Shown piece by piece: positions 24,962-46,181 of a stretch of 64,000 nt of DNA (the first letter of the stretch is position 1; the number at the start of each line of letters is the position of its first letter). The stretch comes from a virus (taxonomy: Duplodnaviria; Caudoviricetes): the IMG/VR virus record IMGVR_UViG_3300028025_000089; one strand, 5' to 3'. Made by a program: the position numbers and the translations under genes. The notes under the pieces are model-generated. The model did no database searches. It saw nothing but the letters and a program-made list of their open reading frames with translations, and was not told the DNA's origin.

Positions 24962-26101
24962 ATGGATATCGATAGAATGATAAGAAAACTTCTTAAAGAA
25001 GCTGATGAAACCAAAACATTAGGTTTAAATTATAATGACCAGTATGATATTTTACAAAAAGGTATAAATTCATGTCCTACTTTTTCTAATTTAGTAAAGG
25101 GTAGAACTATTAAAGTTTTCCCAAGTTCTGAAATATCAAAAATACCTGAATTAGCGGGTTTAACCGAAGTTGCTTATATCTCGACACCTTTAAGAGAAGA
25201 TGGTTTGGGGTTAATATTTTTTGGTGTGAAAGATAAAGAAACTGAGATGGGAAAAAAACAATTTTTAACATACGCATTTAAAGCTGGATTTAAACCAACA
25301 AAATGGAAACAAGGATGGGGATCTGATTGTGATGCAATTCAAGAATTATCACAACTAGGTAAAGATACTTTAACACCAGAACAAAAAAGAATATTAGATG
25401 ATTATATCAAAACTAATGCAGACACAACTGCGGAATACGAACCAACGGGTAATATGGGTGAGTGGACAAAAAAACCTTACAGCGACATTATACCAGGATA
25501 TAAAGGAACAGGATATGTTTGGGTTCAAACTTCTTTACAAAATGTAAATGCGAATGTGTTAGAAGACGTAGATATGGCATTATCTGGACAAGGATTTACA
25601 AGAATTGAGACGGATTTACCTTACGATTCTCCAGAAAGAAATTATCCTATATTATTGAAGGATCTAGTCATTTACTACCCGTCTTTACAAGCCGCAGCAA
25701 CAAAGTCACCAAATACTAAAGTTTATCTACAAAAAGGAACTTTTCCAACACCTGATAAAGAAAGTTGTAGATCGGTTATAAAACTTTTAACCACATGTTC
25801 AAAAACAAAAGGTGGTGCCGGTGCGGAATGTTATAAAAACTTACTTAAAAATAAGTATTTGGCGTTACAGTGTCAAAATTTGAAATTTGTAGGAGGTGCG
25901 TTAGGACTAAGAGACGAATTCGACGACTTATTAACCGATGGGACTGGAAATTTTGGTTTAGGATCAATAAAAGCGGCGCTTGATAGAGGTATTACAACAA
26001 AATCATCAGAACCACAAAAAAACTATTCAATTAAAGAATCGATTGACAAAAGAGTTTCAAAAGCCTTGAACGAAGAGTTTAAAAGAATTTTTAAATATTA
26101 A
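24962..26101 (+). CDS. Leader-variant protein (MDIDRMIRKLLKE-A)
   Basis: 379 aa ORF. Confidence 0.8.
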   Translation: MDIDRMIRKLLKEADETKTLGLNYNDQYDILQKGINSCPTFSNLVKGRTIKVFPSSEISKIPELAGLTEVAYISTPLREDGLGLIFFGVKDKETEMGKKQFLTYAFKAGFKPTKWKQGWGSDCDAIQELSQLGKDTLTPEQKRILDDYIKTNADTTAEYEPTGNMGEWTKKPYSDIIPGYKGTGYVWVQTSLQNVNANVLEDVDMALSGQGFTRIETDLPYDSPERNYPILLKDLVIYYPSLQAAATKSPNTKVYLQKGTFPTPDKESCRSVIKLLTTCSKTKGGAGAECYKNLLKNKYLALQCQNLKFVGGALGLRDEFDDLLTDGTGNFGLGSIKAALDRGITTKSSEPQKNYSIKESIDKRVSKALNEEFKRIFKY

Positions 26102-26102
26102 T

Positions 26103-26732
26103 ATGAAAAGTATCGATAACTTGTATTTAGACTTAGTTTATGAAAAACTAAGATTGGTTGAAAATGGTTATGATCGACTATTGGTTGAGGAACAATTGTG
26201 GGACATTGGTAAGTTTATTTTAAGTAACTTTGGGACTGCAGCAACACAAACAATTAAAGGTCAGTTATTTGAATATTTGGTTGGTAAATTAGGAATACCG
26301 ACTGATTCGTATATTGCTTTGGCAATCAAAAATTTATTGGCAAATGTTCCTTTTAGAAATTATTATAAATTATTAAATGATTGTGACTATTTGACTTCAC
26401 AATTGGCAAAAGCATTAATCGAGGCATTTATTGATCAATGGAGAAAAAGTGCTGGTTTTGATAGTTTGATACACATTGCACTTAAAGAACTTTTGGTTGA
26501 GGCGGCAACAAAAACTGATTTATATCTTAAACTACAAAAAAAATTGGTAAATATAGTTTGTCCATTGGTTAAAGAATTTGCGGGAGGTATTGATATGACT
26601 GCATTTAAAGGGGCTGCAAACGCACCTAAAGCTTCAGACATTACCAAAAACCTTAAAGTTGATAAAGATATTATGAATAACGTTAAATCAAAAATCGGAA
26701 TGGGAGACTCAAATACCCCAACAGAAAAATAA
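26103..26732 (+). CDS. Hypothetical protein
   Basis: ORF track. Confidence 0.8.
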   Translation: MKSIDNLYLDLVYEKLRLVENGYDRLLVEEQLWDIGKFILSNFGTAATQTIKGQLFEYLVGKLGIPTDSYIALAIKNLLANVPFRNYYKLLNDCDYLTSQLAKALIEAFIDQWRKSAGFDSLIHIALKELLVEAATKTDLYLKLQKKLVNIVCPLVKEFAGGIDMTAFKGAANAPKASDITKNLKVDKDIMNNVKSKIGMGDSNTPTEK

Positions 26733-26809: not shown

Positions 26810-27574
26810 ATGAAAACACCACTTTTAAAAATCTCTGTTAGTTTAGTGTCAATCGCATTATTTTTCATTTTGATCTTCTCAATGAAAAATGACGATTTAC
26901 CTAATTATGATCCAGAAAAAGAATTGGCTCACTTATTGGTTAATAAAAATGACAAAACCTCAGAAAACACAAATAACGGTGGAGGAACTAATACGTCATC
27001 TGAAACTTCAGAAGAAAACTCAAAACCAAATAAAGTAAGTCATTCTCAAGAAGCGATAGAATATTTCAACACCATCGTATTTAATTCCGAGTTTACAGGT
27101 AAAAGATCAACACCAATTAAATGGACTGAAGACATGAAAATCTATGTCGATGGTTCTAAAGTGTCTAATTTAACTTCTGAATTAAAAAGAATTATTTCTG
27201 AATTAAATGACATAATCGACCCAATCGATATTAAAATTGTAAATAATAAAAGTGATGCCAATTTCTTCATCTTCTTAGGTGGGTATGAAGACTTCAAAGA
27301 AACCTATGAAGTGGTATATCCATCACGTTTGGATAATAATTGGGGTTATTTTGAAGTATACCCAAGCAACTACGGTATCATGTATGTTGATATTTATCGA
27401 GCTACAAATGTTGATGCTCAAAAACACTTACTACGTGAAGAATTAACCCAATCTCTTGGTCTTTTGAACGATTCATACAAATACCCTGAGAGTATTTTTT
27501 ACCAAGGTTGGACAACAACTACAGAATATGCGCCAATTGATCGTGAATTGATTGACATGTTATACAACAATTAG
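26810..27574 (+). CDS. Membrane-anchored DUF2927-like protein
   Basis: N-terminal TM; KWTEDMKIYV..HLLREELTQSLGLLND..SIFYQ; TATATTTG at 26778. Confidence 0.75.
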   Translation: MKTPLLKISVSLVSIALFFILIFSMKNDDLPNYDPEKELAHLLVNKNDKTSENTNNGGGTNTSSETSEENSKPNKVSHSQEAIEYFNTIVFNSEFTGKRSTPIKWTEDMKIYVDGSKVSNLTSELKRIISELNDIIDPIDIKIVNNKSDANFFIFLGGYEDFKETYEVVYPSRLDNNWGYFEVYPSNYGIMYVDIYRATNVDAQKHLLREELTQSLGLLNDSYKYPESIFYQGWTTTTEYAPIDRELIDMLYNN

Positions 27575-27595
27575 TATATTTATAAAGAACGATTT

Positions 27596-27604
27596 GTTCT
27601 TTGA
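27596..27604 (+). promoter_or_regulatory. boxA-like antitermination site
   Basis: GTTCTTTGA 5 nt before tRNA-Ser. Confidence 0.65.
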
Positions 27605-27609
27605 AAAAC

Positions 27610-27694
27610 AGAGGAGTGTCAGAGCGGTCGAATGAGGCGGTCTTGAAAACCGTTGATCCTAACAGATCCGGGGGTTCGAATCCCTCCTCCTCTG
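27610..27694 (+). tRNA. trnS: tRNA-Ser(UGA)
   Basis: AGAGGAG/CTCCTCT acceptor, loop CTTGAAA, long variable arm, TTCGAAT. Confidence 0.93.
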
Positions 27695-27709
27695 CAAAAT
27701 GTAAAATAT

Positions 27710-27783
27710 GGTCCCGTAGCTCAGCTGGATAGAGCAACTGCCTTCTAAGCAGTAGGTCAATGGTTCGAATCCATTCGGGATCA
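27710..27783 (+). tRNA. trnR: tRNA-Arg(UCU)
   Basis: Canonical cloverleaf, loop CTTCTAA. Confidence 0.95.
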
Positions 27784-27946
27784 CAACTTTAAAAATATGG
27801 AAGAAATTTTTTATCAGTTACACGAAGAGTTCATTAACTCTGAAGATTTTAATCAATACGTAAAAGAAATGTTAGAATACGAACATACATTAATTTTACA
27901 ATCTGAAAATAATAACTTATAGTTTAATAAATTATAAGATATTATA

Positions 27947-28018
27947 AGTCGTGTAGCTCAGATGGCTAGAGCAATCCAAATTATGGATGTGTCATTGGTT
28001 CGAATCCTTTTACGACTT
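27947..28018 (+). pseudogene. Degenerate tRNA (5-nt anticodon loop)
   Basis: Good acceptor and D arm; ATCCA-AATTA-TGGAT; mismatched T-stem. Confidence 0.7.
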
Positions 28019-28053
28019 ATAAAAATTAAAAAGTGTTGGTGACAACACTTTTT

Positions 28054-28563
28054 TTATTTATATACAGTTAATACGCAATAAAAAATCTGATCATTATAGG
28101 TAACTCCATTTATGATAATCTTATTTGAAGTTTTACTACCAACACAAAGTCCGTCATATTTTGGATTTAACATTAATTCGTTATGTTTAGGAGAATTTTT
28201 CCATAACTCTAACACTTTATTTGCTCTTTCTTCATCCGTCTTCAAATCTATAAAACTACAAAGGTTTTCACCAATATATGTGTAGTTGTATTGATACAAA
28301 TATGTTATTCTTTCAATGAATGTTTCAAATGTTGTTGGAAAAGAAGATGTGATTCTTTGAGAATGATCCAAAGGTAATGTTGATGTCTCTATCATATAGT
28401 TTAACATTTGATCGTTGGCCAATTTAGCTTTAGACTCATACACTAATTCAGGAATACCATTTTGTTTTCGATATAAATTAATTTTTTTAATAATAAGTTC
28501 ATTTACCTTTTGACCAAAAGAAAACGAGAATATAAATAAGAATGTTATTAAAAGTATCTTCAT
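28054..28563 (-). CDS. Secreted CAP/SCP-domain protein
   Basis: Signal peptide; INLYRKQNGIPEL..GENL..WKNSPKHNELML. Confidence 0.85.
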   Translation of the reverse strand: MKILLITFLFIFSFSFGQKVNELIIKKINLYRKQNGIPELVYESKAKLANDQMLNYMIETSTLPLDHSQRITSSFPTTFETFIERITYLYQYNYTYIGENLCSFIDLKTDEERANKVLELWKNSPKHNELMLNPKYDGLCVGSKTSNKIIINGVTYNDQIFYCVLTVYK

Positions 28564-28659
28564 AGTTTTTATATTATATTCAATAATATATATAAATAAA
28601 ATAAGATCAAAAAATTATATTAAGTTTTTTTAATTAAATAATTTTTGTATCTTTGTATT

Positions 28660-37149: not shown

Positions 37150-37632
37150 ATGAATATTTTCTTTTTAGATTTTGATACGAACAAATGTGCTGAGTATCAT
37201 TGTGATAAGCACGTAGTAAAAATGATCCTTGAAACGGCACAACTTCTGTGTGGAGTTCACCATATGGCCCCCCAAGTTACCCCCCAAGTTACCCCCCAAG
37301 TTCCCTATAAGTTATCACATAAAAATCATCCTTGTGCCATATGGGTTCGTGAGTCATTATCTAATTATCTTTATTTATGTGATCTTGGTTTGGAGTTGTG
37401 TAAAGAATATACGTATCGTTATGGAAAACGTCATAAATCTCAAGATGTTATTGAGTGGTGTATCACAAATTTACCGAATATCTGTGACAAAGACTTCACC
37501 ACACCTCCTAAGGCGATGCCTGACGAATATAAAGTCAATGATGTTATAGAATCTTATAGAAATTATTATCGTGGAGCAAAGAAAGATTTTGCTAAATGGA
37601 AAAATAGAGAGATCCCCGAATGGTTTTTATAA
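37150..37632 (+). CDS. denV: Pyrimidine-dimer DNA glycosylase (DenV-like)
   Basis: MNIF.LD..CAEYHCDKHVVKMILETAQLL..HKNHPCAIW. Confidence 0.85.
   Translation: MNIFFLDFDTNKCAEYHCDKHVVKMILETAQLLCGVHHMAPQVTPQVTPQVPYKLSHKNHPCAIWVRESLSNYLYLCDLGLELCKEYTYRYGKRHKSQDVIEWCITNLPNICDKDFTTPPKAMPDEYKVNDVIESYRNYYRGAKKDFAKWKNREIPEWFL
37268..37302 (+). repeat. 12-nt tandem repeat (CCCCCCAAGTTA) about x3, in frame
   Basis: Encodes PQVT repeats inside denV. Confidence 0.9.
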
Positions 37633-37651
37633 AACAGAAGTATTTATTAAT

Positions 37652-38410
37652 ATGAAAGTTTCAAAATCTGCTTGTAGTTCATCAAACCCTTGTTCTGGAT
37701 ATGGTAGTGATGTTAGTGGTTGTTTAGGTAGTTCAAATTTAAAATCAATAGGTATTGGTAATAATGTGTTGGCTAAAGAAGCTGCCGATGCATTCATTAA
37801 AATGACTGATGACATGCCAAGTAATTTAAAAAGTAAGATCTCAATGGGAGGTGCATACAGACCTCTTAATATCCAATGTAATATTTTTGATTGGGGTAAA
37901 TATGAATCAACAGGAAAAAGAGTTAAAAAAGGAACTTCATCGACACCTGCGGCATATCCAGGAACATCTAATCATGGATGGGGTAGAGCAATCGACATAT
38001 CACCGTCAGATGTTCAAAATTGGATTAGAGAAAATGGAACAAAATACGGTTGGTGTTGGGGTGAAGCAAAATCAGAACCTTGGCATTTTACATTTTGTGG
38101 ACCAGGATCAAATAGAGATAAAAATTGTGATAGTTTTTGTAAAGGAAAAATGACCGTAGATACTTCTTCCGACAAAAAAGAAACATCTACAGAGAAAGAA
38201 GAAAAATCTACAGATAAAAAAGATACGTCTACTGATGGTAAAGATAAAAAAAAGAAATTCGATCCATTTTTTTCTTCTTTGGATGCAATTGTTGCTCTTG
38301 GTAAAGGAGATGTAAAAGGGTTGGAAGATTATGTTAGTAGTAGTGCTGATATGATTGGTTTATCCGAAGACGTAGATAGAATAAAAGATATTATGAAAAA
38401 AATACTTTAA
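37652..38410 (+). CDS. M15 (VanY-like) peptidoglycan peptidase
   Basis: AYRPLNIQ..AAYPGTSNHGWGRAIDI..YGW..EPWHF; ATG 37652 after GTATTTAT. Confidence 0.85.
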   Translation: MKVSKSACSSSNPCSGYGSDVSGCLGSSNLKSIGIGNNVLAKEAADAFIKMTDDMPSNLKSKISMGGAYRPLNIQCNIFDWGKYESTGKRVKKGTSSTPAAYPGTSNHGWGRAIDISPSDVQNWIRENGTKYGWCWGEAKSEPWHFTFCGPGSNRDKNCDSFCKGKMTVDTSSDKKETSTEKEEKSTDKKDTSTDGKDKKKKFDPFFSSLDAIVALGKGDVKGLEDYVSSSADMIGLSEDVDRIKDIMKKIL

Positions 38411-38467
38411 ATATTTGACTAATATTTATATTTAACTTATCATTTCACTTGTAATTAATTAAATAAT

Positions 38468-38644
38468 ATGAGTGAAGAATTAACCCAAGAAAATGAACCG
38501 AAAGTAATTGAGATGTATTCTTACATTGCAAACGGAAAACAACTATGGACATCTAATCTATCATTTGCACAAATCAGAGCTGATTTTTATGGAACAAATG
38601 ATGTTTATGTTGAAAAAGTTGAAGTGAAAAACTTGACAAATTAA
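38468..38644 (+). CDS. Small hypothetical protein (58 aa, not in track)
   Basis: MSEELTQENEPKVIEMYSYIANGKQLWTSNL... Confidence 0.65.
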   Translation: MSEELTQENEPKVIEMYSYIANGKQLWTSNLSFAQIRADFYGTNDVYVEKVEVKNLTN

Positions 38645-38655
38645 AATTAAGTTTT

Positions 38656-38775
38656 TATATTTGTAAAACAATTGAGGGAAACCTTAAAAAAAAAGTAAAA
38701 GAAAAATTTGACTAATTAAAAAATTCTTCTTAACTTTGTAAAACAAATCAGGAAACGTCCTGAATCGTTCTTTGA
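38656..38775 (+). promoter_or_regulatory. Tandem host-type promoters plus boxA
   Basis: TATATTTG 38656; TTTG..TAACTTTG 38731; GTTCTTTGA 38767. Confidence 0.7.
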
Positions 38776-38789
38776 AAAAATAGATTATC

Positions 38790-39670
38790 CAATCAGGAAA
38801 AGTTTTGTCAGATTAATTGACGTGTAATTGAAACGAATGTTTCATCTTGGAATGATAAAGATATTGGGCAGTATATGGTCCATTAAAATAAACCATGAAA
38901 GTGGGATAAAGTGAATTATTTGTGTTAGATAGTTTGCGGCTTCTTCGGGAGCTCGAGTATACAAGCGGGATACCGTTTAACCTTTAGTATCGAGGGCAAC
39001 GCTGTAGAGAAAGTGGTTAGATGATTTGGCGATGTGGGTCGTCAAATTGAGGTGGGAACACCAATAGGAATAACTCGTAGGAATTTTGCAAAACAAAGTG
39101 TTCCAACACTTTCATTGCGAGTTCCAATATTAGAGGATACTTAAAACCGAAAGGTATGATAACAAACGGGTGGTGCCGACATTATCCTTGATGAACTCCT
39201 ACCAAGGGGTTAATCTCGAAGTAGTCTTAAAGTATGGAAATGGGGACATTTCAGAGAGTAGTTGAGTATTTCGTTGTTCAAAAGATAACGAAGCCCGTGA
39301 CGGACCACTACTTTCACAATCCACGACACAAAACTTATGGAAGTTGTTATTTTCCAAAAAATAATTATTACATTAAGGAAAAGTGTCCGTCAGGTTTGAA
39401 TGAAAGGTGACTACATAGTAATGAGCAGTTCATTGCACACAAAGATCCCAAGTCGATGTGTAATTTTTCGAAAAACCTTTAATCCCGCAAGGACGAACTG
39501 GGGAGGCATCCTCGGAAAGAGTTAAAGTAGAATGAGAGTAGTTCAGACCTCAAGGAGTGGTATACCTAAAAGACCGTCACTGAGAAATACTTCTCAAAAG
39601 GAAGTGGATAGGAGTAGAAACAATAATGACTCTAAAGGTTCTCACAAATAGGTGTAATCTCAACCTTTTA
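38790..39670 (+). ncRNA. Large structured ncRNA, GOLLD-like (boundaries approximate)
   Basis: About 880 nt without an ORF of 60 aa or more, visibly GC-richer than flanks, many hairpins including UUCG/GNRA loops; family assignment is from recall only. Confidence 0.6.
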
Positions 39671-39707
39671 TTTCTTTTATAGAATGGAGCTAAAACCGGT
39701 AAAAATA

Positions 39708-40268
39708 TTAGGGACGATGTGAATCGATCCCTTTTTTTGTTTTTACTGATTGGTAAATAAGATCAATAAAGTTTAACATTTCATCATGTGTCATTGAATT
39801 TTTTGCATGGTTACATGCGGTGCTTATAAATTGTATGTTTCCTTTCACATACCCTAAATTACTATTGATCCTATCTAAAGAGGCGGTATTGATGTTATTA
39901 CCATTTTCATTTGGTTGAACTAATTTAACACCACTATAAACACAAATGCCACTTTGTATTTCCCATTGATCTAAAAGATCTTGTAAATCAATGTTATACT
40001 CATGATGTCTTTTTTTTAGTCTTCTGAAATGCTCTCTAAGTCCTGTAAATTGATCTCTACGGTTGTTTCTTTGTGGTTCTAAGTATTTAATATTTTCATT
40101 AACATATTGTTTTAAGTGGTTGTGATTATCAATACCACAACATTTTCTTGAGCAATAGTTTTTTCTACCAATTTTTTCGTTTCTAACTATTTCAGACTTA
40201 TCTTTCAAAAACTCAATACCACAAGATGGGTTAGAACATATTGTTAATTCTTTTTTTCTTTGTCTCAT
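39708..40268 (-). CDS. HNH (His-Me finger) endonuclease, likely homing
   Basis: CxxC..C N-terminus; QSGICVYSG..ASLDRINSNLGYVKGNIQFI..CNHAKN. Confidence 0.85.
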   Translation of the reverse strand: MRQRKKELTICSNPSCGIEFLKDKSEIVRNEKIGRKNYCSRKCCGIDNHNHLKQYVNENIKYLEPQRNNRRDQFTGLREHFRRLKKRHHEYNIDLQDLLDQWEIQSGICVYSGVKLVQPNENGNNINTASLDRINSNLGYVKGNIQFISTACNHAKNSMTHDEMLNFIDLIYQSVKTKKGIDSHRP

Positions 40269-40291
40269 ATTCTTTTATTTATAAATAGTCC

Positions 40292-40320
40292 GTATCCACA
40301 AAAAAAACCAAGTATCCACA
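40292..40320. repeat. Direct repeat GTATCCACA x2, 20-bp period
   Basis: 40292-40300 and 40312-40320, each followed by an A-run. Confidence 0.7.
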
Positions 40321-40332
40321 AAAAAATAAACA

Positions 40333-40363
40333 AAAAAAATCCCACCATAATTAAATAGTGGGA
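40333..40363 (-). terminator. tmRNA terminator
   Basis: ATCCCAC/GTGGGAT with a T-run on the minus strand. Confidence 0.75.
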
Positions 40364-40368
40364 TCAAT

Positions 40369-40786
40369 TGGTGGACCTAGAGGGCTCCGACTCCCTCGTC
40401 CGGCTCGTCTTGTCTAAAAGACAACTACATGTTTAGATCAAGGTTTTTCATACCTTCCGAAATATTTGGTTCCTATTTTTACATTGTTACCAAAAACTGT
40501 GTCGAGTTCACTTTGTTACGGTAGCCCTCTGAACGAGACCGTTGTTTCCTTTTAGAGTGAAAACCAACTCATCTACGACTTCTGTTGCTAGGTTATCTGT
40601 CTGACCGACCCCCCGTTTCCGTATCTAATTAAGCTACAGTAACTTCAGAACCTCTTACTAATCCAAGAGTTTCCATTTTGTTTAGCACATTGCCAGTTGT
40701 GTTTTGAATCAGTTTTTAACGAGATTAATTCAGTCCCGACATGCTTCTTTTATTCAACCAACGCCCGTCAAATCCAATATAGGCCC
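40369..40786 (-). ncRNA. ssrA: tmRNA
   Basis: 5' GGGCCTA..GGATTTGAC, 3' TAGGTCC-ACCA with G3.U70; tag ORF 40694-40629. Confidence 0.92.
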
Positions 40787-40807
40787 ATATATCTTAAATG
40801 ACTATTT

Positions 40808-40831
40808 TCAAAGAACTATAATACAAATATA
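40808..40831 (-). promoter_or_regulatory. Promoter plus boxA for tmRNA
   Basis: Minus strand TATATTTG (40831-40824) then GTTCTTTGA (40816-40808). Confidence 0.7.
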
Positions 40832-40869
40832 ATACAAAGATTTCACTTTGACAATATATTTATAAATAT

Positions 40870-42006
40870 ATGAAAAAAAGACTTCTTATAGAAAATGATG
40901 TTTCAGAAATGACGGATTTTCAAAAAATCCTTCTTTTAAATAAAAGAAAGTTGTCTTCTGATGATGTTGAATTTGAAAGTGATAATTACGAAGACTTGAA
41001 ACTAAATCATGTTCAGATTAAACCTGATGGTCTATTATTTGATTTTGATGATTTAGAACAGTTTTTAAAGTTTTTTCATTATCCTACATTTGAAGAAGGA
41101 ACTGACGGTGAGTGGGATGCGACTAATTATGATCGTATGTATTATGGTCAATATGATTTTTATAGTGAGTGTCAAGATCGAGCATACGACGATTGGAGTG
41201 AAGGATATACTTTAGGATATCTTTGTAGTGAAGCAAAAATCAGATTAAGAGAATTACTTAAAATAATTGCACCTAACCTTGTTGATAATATTAAAGAAGA
41301 CGGTAGTAGAATTGATGATGAAAGTCAAATAACTTCAGTATTGGACAAATACTTTCAACATATTGGAGATGAAATGGATGATATTATATGTTCTGCTAAA
41401 TCGAATGGAACTGAAGCGGGAGTTAAAGAAGCGATTGAAAAAGAATATTGTAATACACTTAGTGAATATGGTGTTGAAAAATGGGGTAAGTGGTGTTTTG
41501 GATTATACTTTATAAGTTGGGGTAATCTGGTTCAGTTATTTGTTGAAGATGGTGAATTTGATGTAAACGCTCTTGATGTATTAATTCAAAAAATCGATAA
41601 AAAATTTAGACACGGTCTTCCTGAATATTACGAAATGGAATACTATGTTATGGACAATGAAGTATTTGAATCTGAGTCTTGTGAAAAATTGGTTAATTTA
41701 ATTGATGAGTATATAGAAAGAGCCCAAGAAGAATTTTCTTCTGAATATATTAAAATTATTAATAAACTCTCATCTTTGGATTTATTATATAGAAGAGAAA
41801 TTCCAGGTCAAAAAAATTTATTTATAAAAGTGGATTCAGTTGATCCTGAAACATTAAAGGTAAAGTATCTTATTGGGTCAGGAGGTTATTTTGGTGATCG
41901 TAAATATGGTTTGGCAACTGCTGATGAGGTAATTGCAATGGCAACTCAGCCAGGTTTATTCAACCCAACTGAGTTTAGAATCGATCCAGGTCAATTAAGA
42001 CGATAA
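40870..42006 (+). CDS. Acidic hypothetical protein
   Basis: 378 aa; ATATTTAT upstream. Confidence 0.85.
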   Translation: MKKRLLIENDVSEMTDFQKILLLNKRKLSSDDVEFESDNYEDLKLNHVQIKPDGLLFDFDDLEQFLKFFHYPTFEEGTDGEWDATNYDRMYYGQYDFYSECQDRAYDDWSEGYTLGYLCSEAKIRLRELLKIIAPNLVDNIKEDGSRIDDESQITSVLDKYFQHIGDEMDDIICSAKSNGTEAGVKEAIEKEYCNTLSEYGVEKWGKWCFGLYFISWGNLVQLFVEDGEFDVNALDVLIQKIDKKFRHGLPEYYEMEYYVMDNEVFESESCEKLVNLIDEYIERAQEEFSSEYIKIINKLSSLDLLYRREIPGQKNLFIKVDSVDPETLKVKYLIGSGGYFGDRKYGLATADEVIAMATQPGLFNPTEFRIDPGQLRR

Positions 42007-44141: not shown

Positions 44142-46181
44142 TTATTCTTTCTTTTTTCTTGTTCTTTTAACTTTTTCTTCTTTATTAGAAATTATAACAT
44201 CATCATTTTCGACTTTCAAAATATATTCTTTGTTTTCTTCAATTTCCATCATTAAGATTTTTTCGGAAATTAAATCTTCAATTTTATTTTGAATTGCTCT
44301 TTTGATAGGTCTTGCACCAAAAGTTTCGTCAAAACCAACTTTAGATAGATAATCAACCAAATCTTGTTCATAAGAAAAATAGTATTTTTTCTCTGAAACT
44401 CTTTTTAATAATTTGTCAATCTCTAACTTGGTAATAACGTCAATGTGTGGTTTTTCTAAAGAGTTAAAAATTACAACATCATCAATTCTATTTAAAAACT
44501 CAGGTGAGAAAAACTTTTTCATTTCTTTCTTCAATACATCTTGTTTTTCTTCTTCTTTAACAACATCACTTTTTTGAGGTTGGAATCCCATACCAGTTCC
44601 AAAGTCTTGTAATTTTTTAACTCCAATGTTGGAAGTCATAATAATCAAACAATTTTTGAAGTTAATTTTACGACCTAATGAATCTGTAATGTGGCCATCA
44701 TCTAACAACTGAAGAAGTGTTGAGAAAATGTCTTTGTGAGCTTTCTCGATCTCATCAAACAATACAACAGAATAAGGTTTGTTTTTAACTTGTTCAGTTA
44801 ATTGACCACCTTCATCATGACCAACATATCCTGGAGGTGATCCAATCAAACGAGAAATGGTATGTTTCTCTTGATATTCACTCATATCTACACGAATCAT
44901 ATTGTCTTCACTACCAAAGATTTCTTTCGCCAATTGTTTTGCCAAATACGTTTTACCAACACCCGTAGATCCCAAGAAAATAAATGAACCGATTGGTTTA
45001 TTTGGATCTTTGATTCCAATTCTATTTCTTCTAATTGCTTTTGAAATTTTATTCACCGCTTCTTCTTGACCAATAACCTTTGAATTTAAACTTTCATTTA
45101 AATTAATTAATGAATTTCTTTCGTCCAAATTAATATTGGAAATTGGAATTTTGGTCATGTTGGAAACCACCTCATAAATTAAATCTTCAGGAATACTTCT
45201 TTTACTATTCAATAAACTTTCTTCGAATTTCTTTTTTTCTAAATCCAACTTTGATAAAACATTACGTTCTCTATCTCTTAACTCGGCAGCCAACTCATAT
45301 TTTTGTTGTTTAATAACATTCATTTTTTCTTGTTTGATGGCGTTTGCTTCGTCCTTTAATTTTTCGATTTCTTCAGGTAATTTGATGTCAATTTGCATTC
45401 TTGATCCAACCTCATCCAAAATATCAAATGCTTTATCAGGAAACTCACGATCTGTAATATATCGATCAGCCAACTCAACAAATGTCCAAAGAGTTTTATC
45501 ATCATAAGTCACTTTGTGGTGATCTTCATATTTTGATTTACTCATCTTTAAAATTTCAAATGTTTCTTCTTTTGAAGATGGATCAACAATAACCTTTTGA
45601 AATCTTCGATCTAACGCACCGTCTTTTTCAAAGTGTTTTCTATATTCATCCAAAGTTGTTGCTCCAACACATTGAATATCTCCTCTTGATAAAGCTGGTT
45701 TTAAAATGTTTGACGCATCTAAAGAACCTGAACTATTTCCTGCACCAACCATAGTGTGAATTTCATCAATAAATAAAATGATGTTTGGGGTTGCTTGTAA
45801 CTCTTCGATAATAACTTTCATTCGTTCTTCGAATTGACCTCTATATTTTGTTCCTGCGACTAATGAATTTAAATCTAAAGATACAATTCTTTTATCCATT
45901 AAATTTTTTGGACATTCACCGTTGTGAATCATCATTGCAAGACCCTCCACAATTGCTGTCTTTCCTGCACCTGGTTCACCAATAATAATTGGGTTATTTT
46001 TCTTTCTTCGAGATAAAATCTGAGCGATTCTAAAAATTTCTTTTTGTCTTCCAATTACAGGATCTAATTTCCCGTCTTGTGCTAACTTATTTAAGTCTTT
46101 ACTAAAATTATCTAATACAGGAGTCCCGCTATCAGATTTCTTTTTTGATTTGTCATTTCCTTCGTCCATAAATTCTAACAT
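44142..46181 (-). CDS. clpC: ClpC-type AAA+ ATPase lacking the N-terminal domain
   Basis: GEPGAGKT, LFIDEIH, UVR middle domain, GSTGVGKT, LFDEIEK, GMGF loop, GARP. Confidence 0.93.
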   Translation of the reverse strand: MLEFMDEGNDKSKKKSDSGTPVLDNFSKDLNKLAQDGKLDPVIGRQKEIFRIAQILSRRKKNNPIIIGEPGAGKTAIVEGLAMMIHNGECPKNLMDKRIVSLDLNSLVAGTKYRGQFEERMKVIIEELQATPNIILFIDEIHTMVGAGNSSGSLDASNILKPALSRGDIQCVGATTLDEYRKHFEKDGALDRRFQKVIVDPSSKEETFEILKMSKSKYEDHHKVTYDDKTLWTFVELADRYITDREFPDKAFDILDEVGSRMQIDIKLPEEIEKLKDEANAIKQEKMNVIKQQKYELAAELRDRERNVLSKLDLEKKKFEESLLNSKRSIPEDLIYEVVSNMTKIPISNINLDERNSLINLNESLNSKVIGQEEAVNKISKAIRRNRIGIKDPNKPIGSFIFLGSTGVGKTYLAKQLAKEIFGSEDNMIRVDMSEYQEKHTISRLIGSPPGYVGHDEGGQLTEQVKNKPYSVVLFDEIEKAHKDIFSTLLQLLDDGHITDSLGRKINFKNCLIIMTSNIGVKKLQDFGTGMGFQPQKSDVVKEEEKQDVLKKEMKKFFSPEFLNRIDDVVIFNSLEKPHIDVITKLEIDKLLKRVSEKKYYFSYEQDLVDYLSKVGFDETFGARPIKRAIQNKIEDLISEKILMMEIEENKEYILKVENDDVIISNKEEKVKRTRKKKE

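Follow-up and report, generated by a model that had tools for sequence, protein, structure and literature searches.

The window analysed here is a 64,000-nt stretch of viral DNA (Duplodnaviria; Caudoviricetes; IMG/VR virus record IMGVR_UViG_3300028025_000089). At about 38633-39738 it contains an entire transcription unit, from promoter-like sites to a terminator, around a conserved RNA core of ~800 nt (38867-39666, plus strand). The first-pass annotation had described positions 38790-39670 as a giant structured RNA of ~880 nt, free of ORFs, elevated in GC content and dense in hairpins. These traits were borne out: the longest ORF on either strand has 58 aa, the GC content is 0.37-0.43 vs 0.23-0.26 upstream and 0.27-0.31 downstream, and all six named hairpins are present, each within a conserved helix. 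Folding of 38860-39670 yields a minimum free energy of -217 kcal/mol vs -190.9 ± 5.2 kcal/mol for 20 dinucleotide shuffles (z = -5.0). The region as such is real, but its proposed start at 38790 sits within the transcribed leader, the core begins at 38867, and the ~880 nt include part of the leader. The unit consists of the following elements:

38633-38663, plus strand: promoter-like site P1, TTGACA-17 nt-TATATT then TG (11/12 in the consensus scan)
38656-38663, plus strand: P1 also readable as a Bacteroidetes-type -7 box, TAtaTTTG
38708-38738, plus strand: promoter-like site P2, TTGACT-17 nt-TAACTT then TG, conserved in relatives
38731-38738, plus strand: -7 box of P2, TAacTTTG
38748-38763, plus strand: small leader hairpin between promoter and boxA (terminator-like scan, leader fold)
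38767-38776, plus strand: boxA-like GTTCTTTGAA, 29 nt past the -7 box of P2 and 91 nt short of the core
38777-38866, plus strand: spacer of the leader, variable among relatives, containing a local hairpin GTCAG...TGAC (leader alignment)
38867-39253, plus strand: GOLLD 5′ domain (nhmmer homology, covariation)
38897-38914, plus strand: invariant 18-nt block GAAAGNGGGATAAAGTGA in the 5′ domain (motif search)
39254-39666, plus strand: GOLLD 3′ domain, the Rfam-modelled part (RF02032 match)
about 39316-39380, plus strand: A/U-rich variable linker in the 3′ part (unpaired run in the Rfam consensus)
39686-39700, plus strand: trailer motif GGAGCyAmACCGGT, kept in about half of the close relatives
39711-39738, plus strand: intrinsic terminator, GC-rich hairpin (39711-39731) and seven T (direct reading)

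Scanning with cmscan against all of Rfam 15 assigned the 3′ domain to GOLLD (RF02032) with 313.1 bits (E = 9.5e-89) over the full, untruncated model (1-416 of 416). This is about twice the gathering score of 150 bits and the single strong non-tRNA match across the whole window, and it bears out GOLLD as the best fit, which had been proposed from the letters. Matches to Qrr, SNORD103 and the MPMV packaging signal (E 0.5-0.75, far under their gathering scores) were discarded as chance.

The Rfam model spans the conserved 3′ half of GOLLD alone, and therefore the 5′ half needed separate testing. The invariant 18-nt block was found in at least 120 IMG/VR viral contigs, and for 110 of 124 motif matches nhmmer placed the 5′ domain directly before a GOLLD 3′ domain, with a total length of 805-860 nt. 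The same RNA occurs in the huge phages LR745206 and LR756502 and in the closest virus record (G001); their 3′ halves reach 275-315 bits with the Rfam model, and homology to the window is unbroken from about 38867 to 39666. The RNA has a two-part architecture of a ~390-nt 5′ domain and a ~410-nt 3′ domain with an A/U-rich linker, and every defining feature of GOLLD that could be tested is present.

The original description of GOLLD reportedly drew on lake metagenomes and on prophages of Lactobacillales. Like the family, the window RNA is ~800 nt long and two-domained, has a variable A/U-rich linker, and sits in a freshwater phage near tRNAs. Seen as a member of the family, this copy is unremarkable: ~800 nt in a lake phage with tRNAs nearby is how GOLLD was initially characterised.

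Genomic neighbourhood and relatives

Upstream of GOLLD lies an array of 23 tRNA genes (27610-33716) and downstream a tmRNA gene, and both are preceded by elements resembling those of the GOLLD leader:

27552-27605, plus strand: promoter-like site TTGACA-17 nt-TATATT and boxA-like element (27596-27605) ahead of the tRNA array (first tRNA from 27610)
40369-40786, minus strand: tmRNA gene (Rfam tmRNA, 78.5 bits), 0.7 kb downstream of GOLLD
40807-40816, minus strand: boxA-like element of the tmRNA, an exact copy
40826-40854, minus strand: promoter-like site of the tmRNA, of the same build

A VanY-like gene and a 58-aa ORF precede GOLLD, and an HNH/endonuclease VII-like gene follows immediately downstream in convergent orientation. 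Besides the VanY-type peptidase and the HNH/endonuclease VII-like protein, the flanking genes encode a DenV-like glycosylase, an M20/M42 peptidase and a ClpB-like ATPase. The 23 tRNAs, the tmRNA and these phage genes agree with the phage-borne, tRNA-near setting that had been expected. The same tendency is seen among relatives, as tRNA or tmRNA genes occur in the flanks of 47 of 84 related loci and a tmRNA homologue flanks 34 of 84 unique GOLLD loci.

The ClpB-like protein shows 56-59% identity with its counterparts in LR745206 (634,780 bp) and LR756502 (642,428 bp), both huge uncultured phages, and the GOLLD copies of these two phages share about 60% sequence identity with the window RNA. The Mahaphage clade includes genomes of 634 and 642 kb, with Bacteroidetes as the predicted host; the paper describing these huge phages does not mention GOLLD (PMC7162821). 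The source of the window is probably a very large, low-GC freshwater phage with a Bacteroidota host. DNA matches to the stretch came from freshwater, lake, plankton and subsurface metagenomes of 12 studies, and a search of a phage collection returned three weak DNA matches only. Identifying the host through prophages failed: the 70 genome-contig matches to the 18-nt motif are about as many as expected by chance (17 fixed bases, 596 Gb), and the only one that nhmmer confirmed, a 501-nt contig of a Methylocystis MAG, gave no host assignment. At most, it suggests that species-representative genomes seldom contain this type of GOLLD.

Promoter-like sites, boxA-like leader and terminator

For the window and 15 diverged relatives, we aligned the flanks of the core (260 nt on the upstream side, 130 nt on the downstream side). 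The 10-mer GTTCTTTGAA is unchanged in 16 of 16 aligned leaders. An exact copy of its first nine bases precedes the core by 13-94 nt in 68 of 77 unique loci, and allowing one mismatch raises this to 74 of 77; the background is 0.074 per kb. The window holds three exact copies of GTTCTTTGAA vs 0.45 expected from shuffles. Each is in sense orientation, comes soon after a promoter-like site and is closely followed by a stable-RNA gene, with gaps of 4 nt to the first tRNA of the array, 91 nt to the GOLLD core and 20 nt to the tmRNA. Most tmRNA genes beside related GOLLDs also carry TAnnTTTG followed by GTTCTTT[G/A]A. In bacterial genomes, GTTCTTTGAA was found exactly 84 nt before a 16S gene of Cytobacillus and in a 16S-23S spacer of Bacillus niameyensis. 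Of two Bacteroidota MAGs examined, one has GTTCTTTGAT, matching 9 of 10 bases, 67 nt before its 16S gene, and the other gave a weak rRNA-leader match to GTTCTTTGAA. Judged by its letters, the 10-mer has all the properties of a boxA, and the first-pass annotation, which had named one here, is supported comparatively by the 16 leaders, the 68 loci and the identity with the rRNA boxA of Bacillaceae. Action through Nus factors appears fairly likely.

The possibility that GTTCTTTGAA is another promoter-proximal signal (part of an initial transcribed or discriminator region, a phage-regulator site or a processing signal) and no Nus boxA seems rather unlikely, if less so than the other alternatives. 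The 10-mer lies just 7-30 nt past the -7/-10 box in all three window units, as such a signal might, one of the two Bacteroidota rRNA leaders matches weakly, the motif is found within 120 nt before the array-first tRNA in only 12 of 70 cases at related loci, and Nus binding is read from sequence alone. A boxA, however, better explains why the same 10 nt make up the boxA core in rRNA leaders and spacers of Bacillaceae, come close to that of one Bacteroidota leader, and appear only ahead of untranslated stable RNAs, where boxA acts. Furthermore, the distance to the core ranges from 13 to 94 nt at constant sequence, which favours an RNA-level signal over a spacing-dependent DNA site. The 12 of 70 array-first tRNAs also show that boxA is not universal for phage stable RNAs, and we dropped the generalisation to all phage tRNA arrays. 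Literature searches found no link of GOLLD with boxA, returning for this pair nothing but plant papers on other subjects, and none with tmRNA neighbourhoods; a search with the letters of boxA returned unrelated primer lists only. The boxA forms to compare between GOLLD or tmRNA leaders and the rRNA of the host phylum are GTTCTTTGAA, GTTCTTTAACA and GCTCTTTAACA.

The promoter block consists of TTGAC or TTGTC, 17 nt and then TAACTTTG (window 38708-38738). Its downstream part, TTAACTTTGTAAAAC, with TTGAC/TTGTC upstream, is kept in most of the 15 diverged relatives. P1 is a second copy of the block, 75 nt upstream of P2; it is retained in two relatives (L087, L008), and in two others (L042, L095) the block is duplicated in tandem. 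The block can be read as a sigma-70 pattern and equally as the -7 box of Bacteroidetes, TAnnTTTG, the latter being a feature of Bacteroides and Flavobacterium promoters. Conservation among relatives thus supports the claim that the RNA has its own promoters. Transcription by read-through from the VanY-like gene or the 58-aa ORF, followed by processing, is unlikely. It draws on the nature of the promoter calls, which are consensus matches that shuffled sequence yields as often (10 matches vs 10.0), and on other phages, where GOLLD lies inside tRNA arrays and is presumably processed out. Yet the block persists in relatives with different upstream genes and is tandemly duplicated in some, and in 55 of 68 loci with boxA a TAnnTTTG precedes it by no more than 70 nt.

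Between promoter and boxA, the small leader hairpin survives sequence change in relatives (CAGGA/TCCTG vs CGGA/TCCG). The leader as a whole folds no better than shuffles (z = -0.9). The spacer behind boxA differs in length and sequence among relatives. At the other end, a hairpin with a T-run stands at the same place in nearly all 15 relatives, with stems that differ and are each self-consistent. The automatic terminator scan omitted 39711-39738, probably because of the bulged stem; the weak terminators that it listed inside the RNA sit in conserved GOLLD helices and were disregarded.

[quoted passage not shown] The window unit likewise has tandem promoter-like sites, a hairpin that occupies the place of boxB, and a boxA-like element with the identical 10-nt core of Bacillaceae, and its product, too, is long, untranslated and highly structured. 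In contrast to rRNA operons, no boxC or leader-trailer helix was detected (across 82 loci, native pairs reached -16.1 kcal/mol vs -17.9 kcal/mol for pairs from mismatched loci; one-sided p = 0.999), and the unit ends in an intrinsic terminator. Taken together, 38867-39666 (plus strand) is very probably a canonical full-length GOLLD RNA gene with the architecture of a stand-alone stable-RNA unit, laid out like a small rRNA operon.

Such a layout is not shared by all GOLLD copies. Acinetobacter phage Ab15 (PP763259) carries the same GOLLD 3′ domain (218.9 bits), and its 5′ domain begins in a related way, but this 5′ domain is shorter and the RNA lies between two tRNA genes without a promoter, boxA or leader of its own, in a region annotated as small hypothetical proteins. 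Comparing boxA with that of a known host therefore failed for this phage, and boxA is no requirement of the GOLLD family. The structurally solved env-38 follows a tRNA, whereas the window GOLLD stands alone with promoter, boxA leader and terminator and has no tRNA in its linker. What sets the window copy apart from env-38 and from copies within tRNA arrays is thus its organisation as a stand-alone boxA unit; its carrier, moreover, is related to the largest known phages.

Covariation, conserved hairpins and transcription

For covariation analysis we used an alignment (A2) of 44 representatives that are mutually <88% identical and 60-88% identical to the window (953 columns). RNAalifold predicted 178 consensus pairs, 138 of them with compensatory double changes. 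Both domains contribute. Of the 101 consensus pairs in the 5′ domain, 76 are compensatory; 96% of cells are paired vs 36-43% when partners were slid, and the window sequence makes 98 of the 101 pairs. In the 3′ domain there are 76 pairs (62 compensatory), 97% of cells are paired vs 35-44% with slid partners, and the window makes 74 of the 76. The hairpins named in the first reading map as follows:

A2 columns 86-92/109-115: hairpin GCTTC-TTCG-GGAGC (RNAalifold consensus, compensatory changes)
A2 columns 190-214: hairpin ATTTGGCGA/TCGTCAAAT (RNAalifold consensus, compensatory changes)
A2 columns 266-284: hairpin AAAGTGTT/AACACTTT (RNAalifold consensus, compensatory changes)
39146-39155, A2 columns 320-359: hairpin ACC-GAAA-GGT (RNAalifold consensus, compensatory changes)
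A2 columns 516-538: hairpin TTCGTTGT/ATAACGAA (RNAalifold consensus, compensatory changes)
39484-39492: hairpin CC-GCAA-GG (in the Rfam GOLLD consensus)

A long-range helix or pseudoknot of the Rfam model (139-148 with 289-298) was aligned by cmscan without non-canonical marks, and the same helix, which encloses the central hairpins of the 3′ domain, was regained with covariation in A2 (columns 651-661/804-820). The linker varies in length and sequence over the 44 homologues (A2 columns about 565-640).

Against this background, a new giant-RNA class merely resembling GOLLD, held in reserve by the first-pass annotation should covariance models fail, or membership in ROOL or OLE, has a negligible probability. 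The sole point for a new class is that the 5′ half lies outside the Rfam model, but in >100 contigs it is a common 5′ domain joined to Rfam-positive 3′ domains. With the full-length match to GOLLD at twice the gathering score the new-class branch drops out, and the covariance search that had been proposed for GOLLD, ROOL and OLE found only the first: models of ROOL, OLE and group I/II introns were unmatched within 38300-40900, whether judged by the gathering score or by E ≤ 1. The first-pass annotation had listed an intron or a decayed gene as possible refutations. That the region is the remnant of a protein-coding gene, or else a self-splicing intron or some other mobile element, which the HNH/endonuclease VII-like gene directly downstream on the opposite strand might suggest because genes of this type often go with mobile introns, is scarcely credible given the 138 pairs upheld by compensatory changes at 60-88% identity, the absence of any ORF >58 aa, the lack of an Rfam match to intron families and the absence of flanking exon halves.

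Part of the stretch was matched in six metatranscriptome runs. Four of them, from independent freshwater studies, were compared over 38200-40900 at the level of contigs, which convey no ends, strand or expression level. RNA-library contigs cover 38885-39644, many with 95-100% identity and some with very high word depth, and the tmRNA has a lower cover by RNA contigs. The objection that the region might not be transcribed is thereby answered in part, as the body of the RNA is covered by contigs that define neither its ends nor its strand. In all four runs contigs start at 38885-38887, most likely reflecting a graph break at the invariant block rather than a 5′ end. One RNA contig connects the boxA leader (to 38778) with the core (from 38863), as expected for a relative with a shorter spacer; leader and core are joined on one molecule. 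The flanks 38200-38654 and 39656-40383 have no cover in the four RNA libraries, a pattern that relatives with other flanks would produce as well and from which we drew no conclusion.

Probable cage assembly and possible roles

The GOLLD RNA env-38 forms a protein-free, closed 14-mer cage of D7 symmetry, 380 Å across, in which 5′ domains build the caps, 3′ domains build the rings and the linker is disordered inside (PMC12286853). Three of its loops are relevant here: L11a, a conserved non-interacting GAAA loop; L21a, a symmetric kissing loop switching between GC and CG; and L21b, a second, highly conserved symmetric kissing loop (PMC12286853). In the window RNA, the 5′ domain bears a hairpin with a GAAA cap (39146-39155) whose position is conserved, and the 3′ domain offers two adjacent candidate loops:

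39484-39492, plus strand: hairpin CCC-GCAA-GG, probably the intermolecular kissing loop L21a (GC at 39487-39488)
39500-39513, plus strand: hairpin loop GGCA, probably L21b (GC at 39506-39507)

The first loop carries a self-complementary GC, CG or AU in 85 of 85 unique homologues (GCAA, UCGA, AUAA, GGCA), and the GC of the second is unchanged in all 85. Both are consistent with the description of L21a and L21b, labels that were mapped from the text of the env-38 paper without its figures or an alignment to env-38. The GAAA-capped hairpin of the family is kept, and probably both kissing loops are as well. By analogy with env-38, a distant member and the one for which a cage has been shown, the window RNA is likely to assemble into a cage.

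ROOL, another giant RNA borne by phages, forms an 8-mer cage. It is likewise large, ornate and encoded near tRNA islands, but it is unrelated to the window RNA in sequence and fold, and its Rfam model is unmatched. ROOL and GOLLD probably work similarly, as self-assembling cages.

We propose that boxA would recruit the host proteins NusB-NusE (S10) and other Nus factors, so that RNA polymerase could then make a long, untranslated, folded RNA without Rho-dependent termination. The Nus complex may also aid folding of the RNA during synthesis, as has been proposed for the antitermination complex in rRNA transcription, and the phage tRNA array and tmRNA might be served likewise. The GOLLD RNA would be made in quantity, its leader trimmed away, and it would self-assemble into a closed 14-subunit cage as in env-38, with 5′ domains as caps and 3′ domains as equatorial rings linked via the two self-complementary kissing loops. 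The cage could serve as an abundant RNA compartment or scaffold in the lytic phase, working with the phage tRNAs and tmRNA, and might hold or sequester translation-related cargo.

The biological function of GOLLD is described as unsettled in the env-38 paper, which also cites a ribosome pull-down (PMC12286853). This pull-down, the recurrent proximity to tRNA arrays, the tmRNA in the flanks of 34 of 84 loci and the common promoter-boxA design lead us to consider a translation-related role, which we put forward with low confidence. Only tentatively, we also suggest that a large, mostly freshwater phage lineage may possess a "stable-RNA regulon", in which GOLLD and tmRNA (here also the tRNA array) would be equipped with a host-type promoter and an rRNA-type boxA and thereby borrow the host's antitermination and RNA-chaperone complex; Nus-aided folding would then be needed for the 14-mer, and the pairing with tmRNA would hint that the cage acts in ribosome rescue or in taking over translation.

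Relatives of the largest known phages, LR745206 and LR756502 themselves included, carry GOLLD without its being annotated. The comparative set of 84 unique full-length sequences, together with covariation in the 5′ domain, could extend the Rfam family model and help to test the conservation of quaternary contacts. The conserved boxA leader offers a concrete, testable handle on how such giant RNAs are made and hints at how GOLLD could be expressed properly in vivo. If Nus factors were needed for the synthesis or folding of GOLLD, this orphan RNA would be tied to a known host machine.

Downstream flank of GOLLD and the neighbouring tmRNA gene

The giant structured RNA GOLLD is followed in the window by three features:

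39686-39700 (+), trailer motif GGAGCyAmACCGGT, conserved in roughly half the close relatives
39708-40268 (-), HNH/endonuclease VII-like gene (PHROG 3322, 1035)
40369-40854 (-), phage tmRNA gene (Rfam, 78.5 bits) with a promoter-like site and boxA

The trailer motif follows the end of GOLLD and precedes the intrinsic terminator of this RNA; we looked for a pairing partner of this motif and found none. The endonuclease gene, located between GOLLD and the tmRNA gene, has its stop codon immediately before the terminator hairpin, and therefore the terminator may serve both strands. The tmRNA gene received no call from ARAGORN. Besides its own promoter-like site, it possesses an exact boxA, the rRNA-leader-type 10-mer, 20 nt upstream of its 5′ end. 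A tmRNA homologue was present on either strand within the fetched flanks at 34 of the 84 unique GOLLD loci, usually 0.1-2.7 kb downstream.

The tRNA array and further protein-coding genes

27552-33716 (+), tRNA array (23 genes called with ARAGORN; the Rfam tRNA model matches 24 times)
37150-37632 (+), ORF for a DenV-like pyrimidine-dimer glycosylase
37571-38410 (+), ORF for a VanY-type peptidase
44142-46181 (-), ClpB/ClpC-like double AAA+ ATPase (PHROG 4871)

The array opens with TTGACA-17-TATATT, followed by an exact boxA 4 nt upstream of the first tRNA; near-copies of boxA occur within the array at 29898 (GTTCTTTGAC) and 32041 (GTTCTTTGAT). Three unusual tRNAs were observed (all +): a tRNA-Asn with anticodon ATT (27946-28019), one called by Rfam alone, as a partial match to model positions 6-65 (30426-30482), and one to which ARAGORN assigned a four-base anticodon, ggaa (32358-32433). 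As listed, the glycosylase and peptidase ORFs overlap by 62 nt; the true start of the latter is probably a later codon.

GOLLD in huge phages and in Acinetobacter phage Ab15

Among phage-collection proteins, the closest matches of the ClpB/ClpC-like ATPase (56-59% identity) belong to LR745206 and LR756502. Both genomes also contain a full-length GOLLD adjoining tRNA genes; their records carry no annotation, and GOLLD is unmentioned in the paper on phage genomes of 634 and 642 kb (PMC7162821).

L002 3001-3859, full-length GOLLD of the 634 kb huge phage LR745206
L003 2995-3835, full-length GOLLD of the 642 kb huge phage LR756502
L202 2040-2768 (PP763259.1, about 25969-26697), GOLLD of Acinetobacter phage Ab15 (3′ domain, 218.9 bits)

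The Ab15 GOLLD is flanked on each side by a tRNA gene. In the public record, this region holds only small opposite-strand CDSs annotated as “hypothetical protein”, which are probably spurious.
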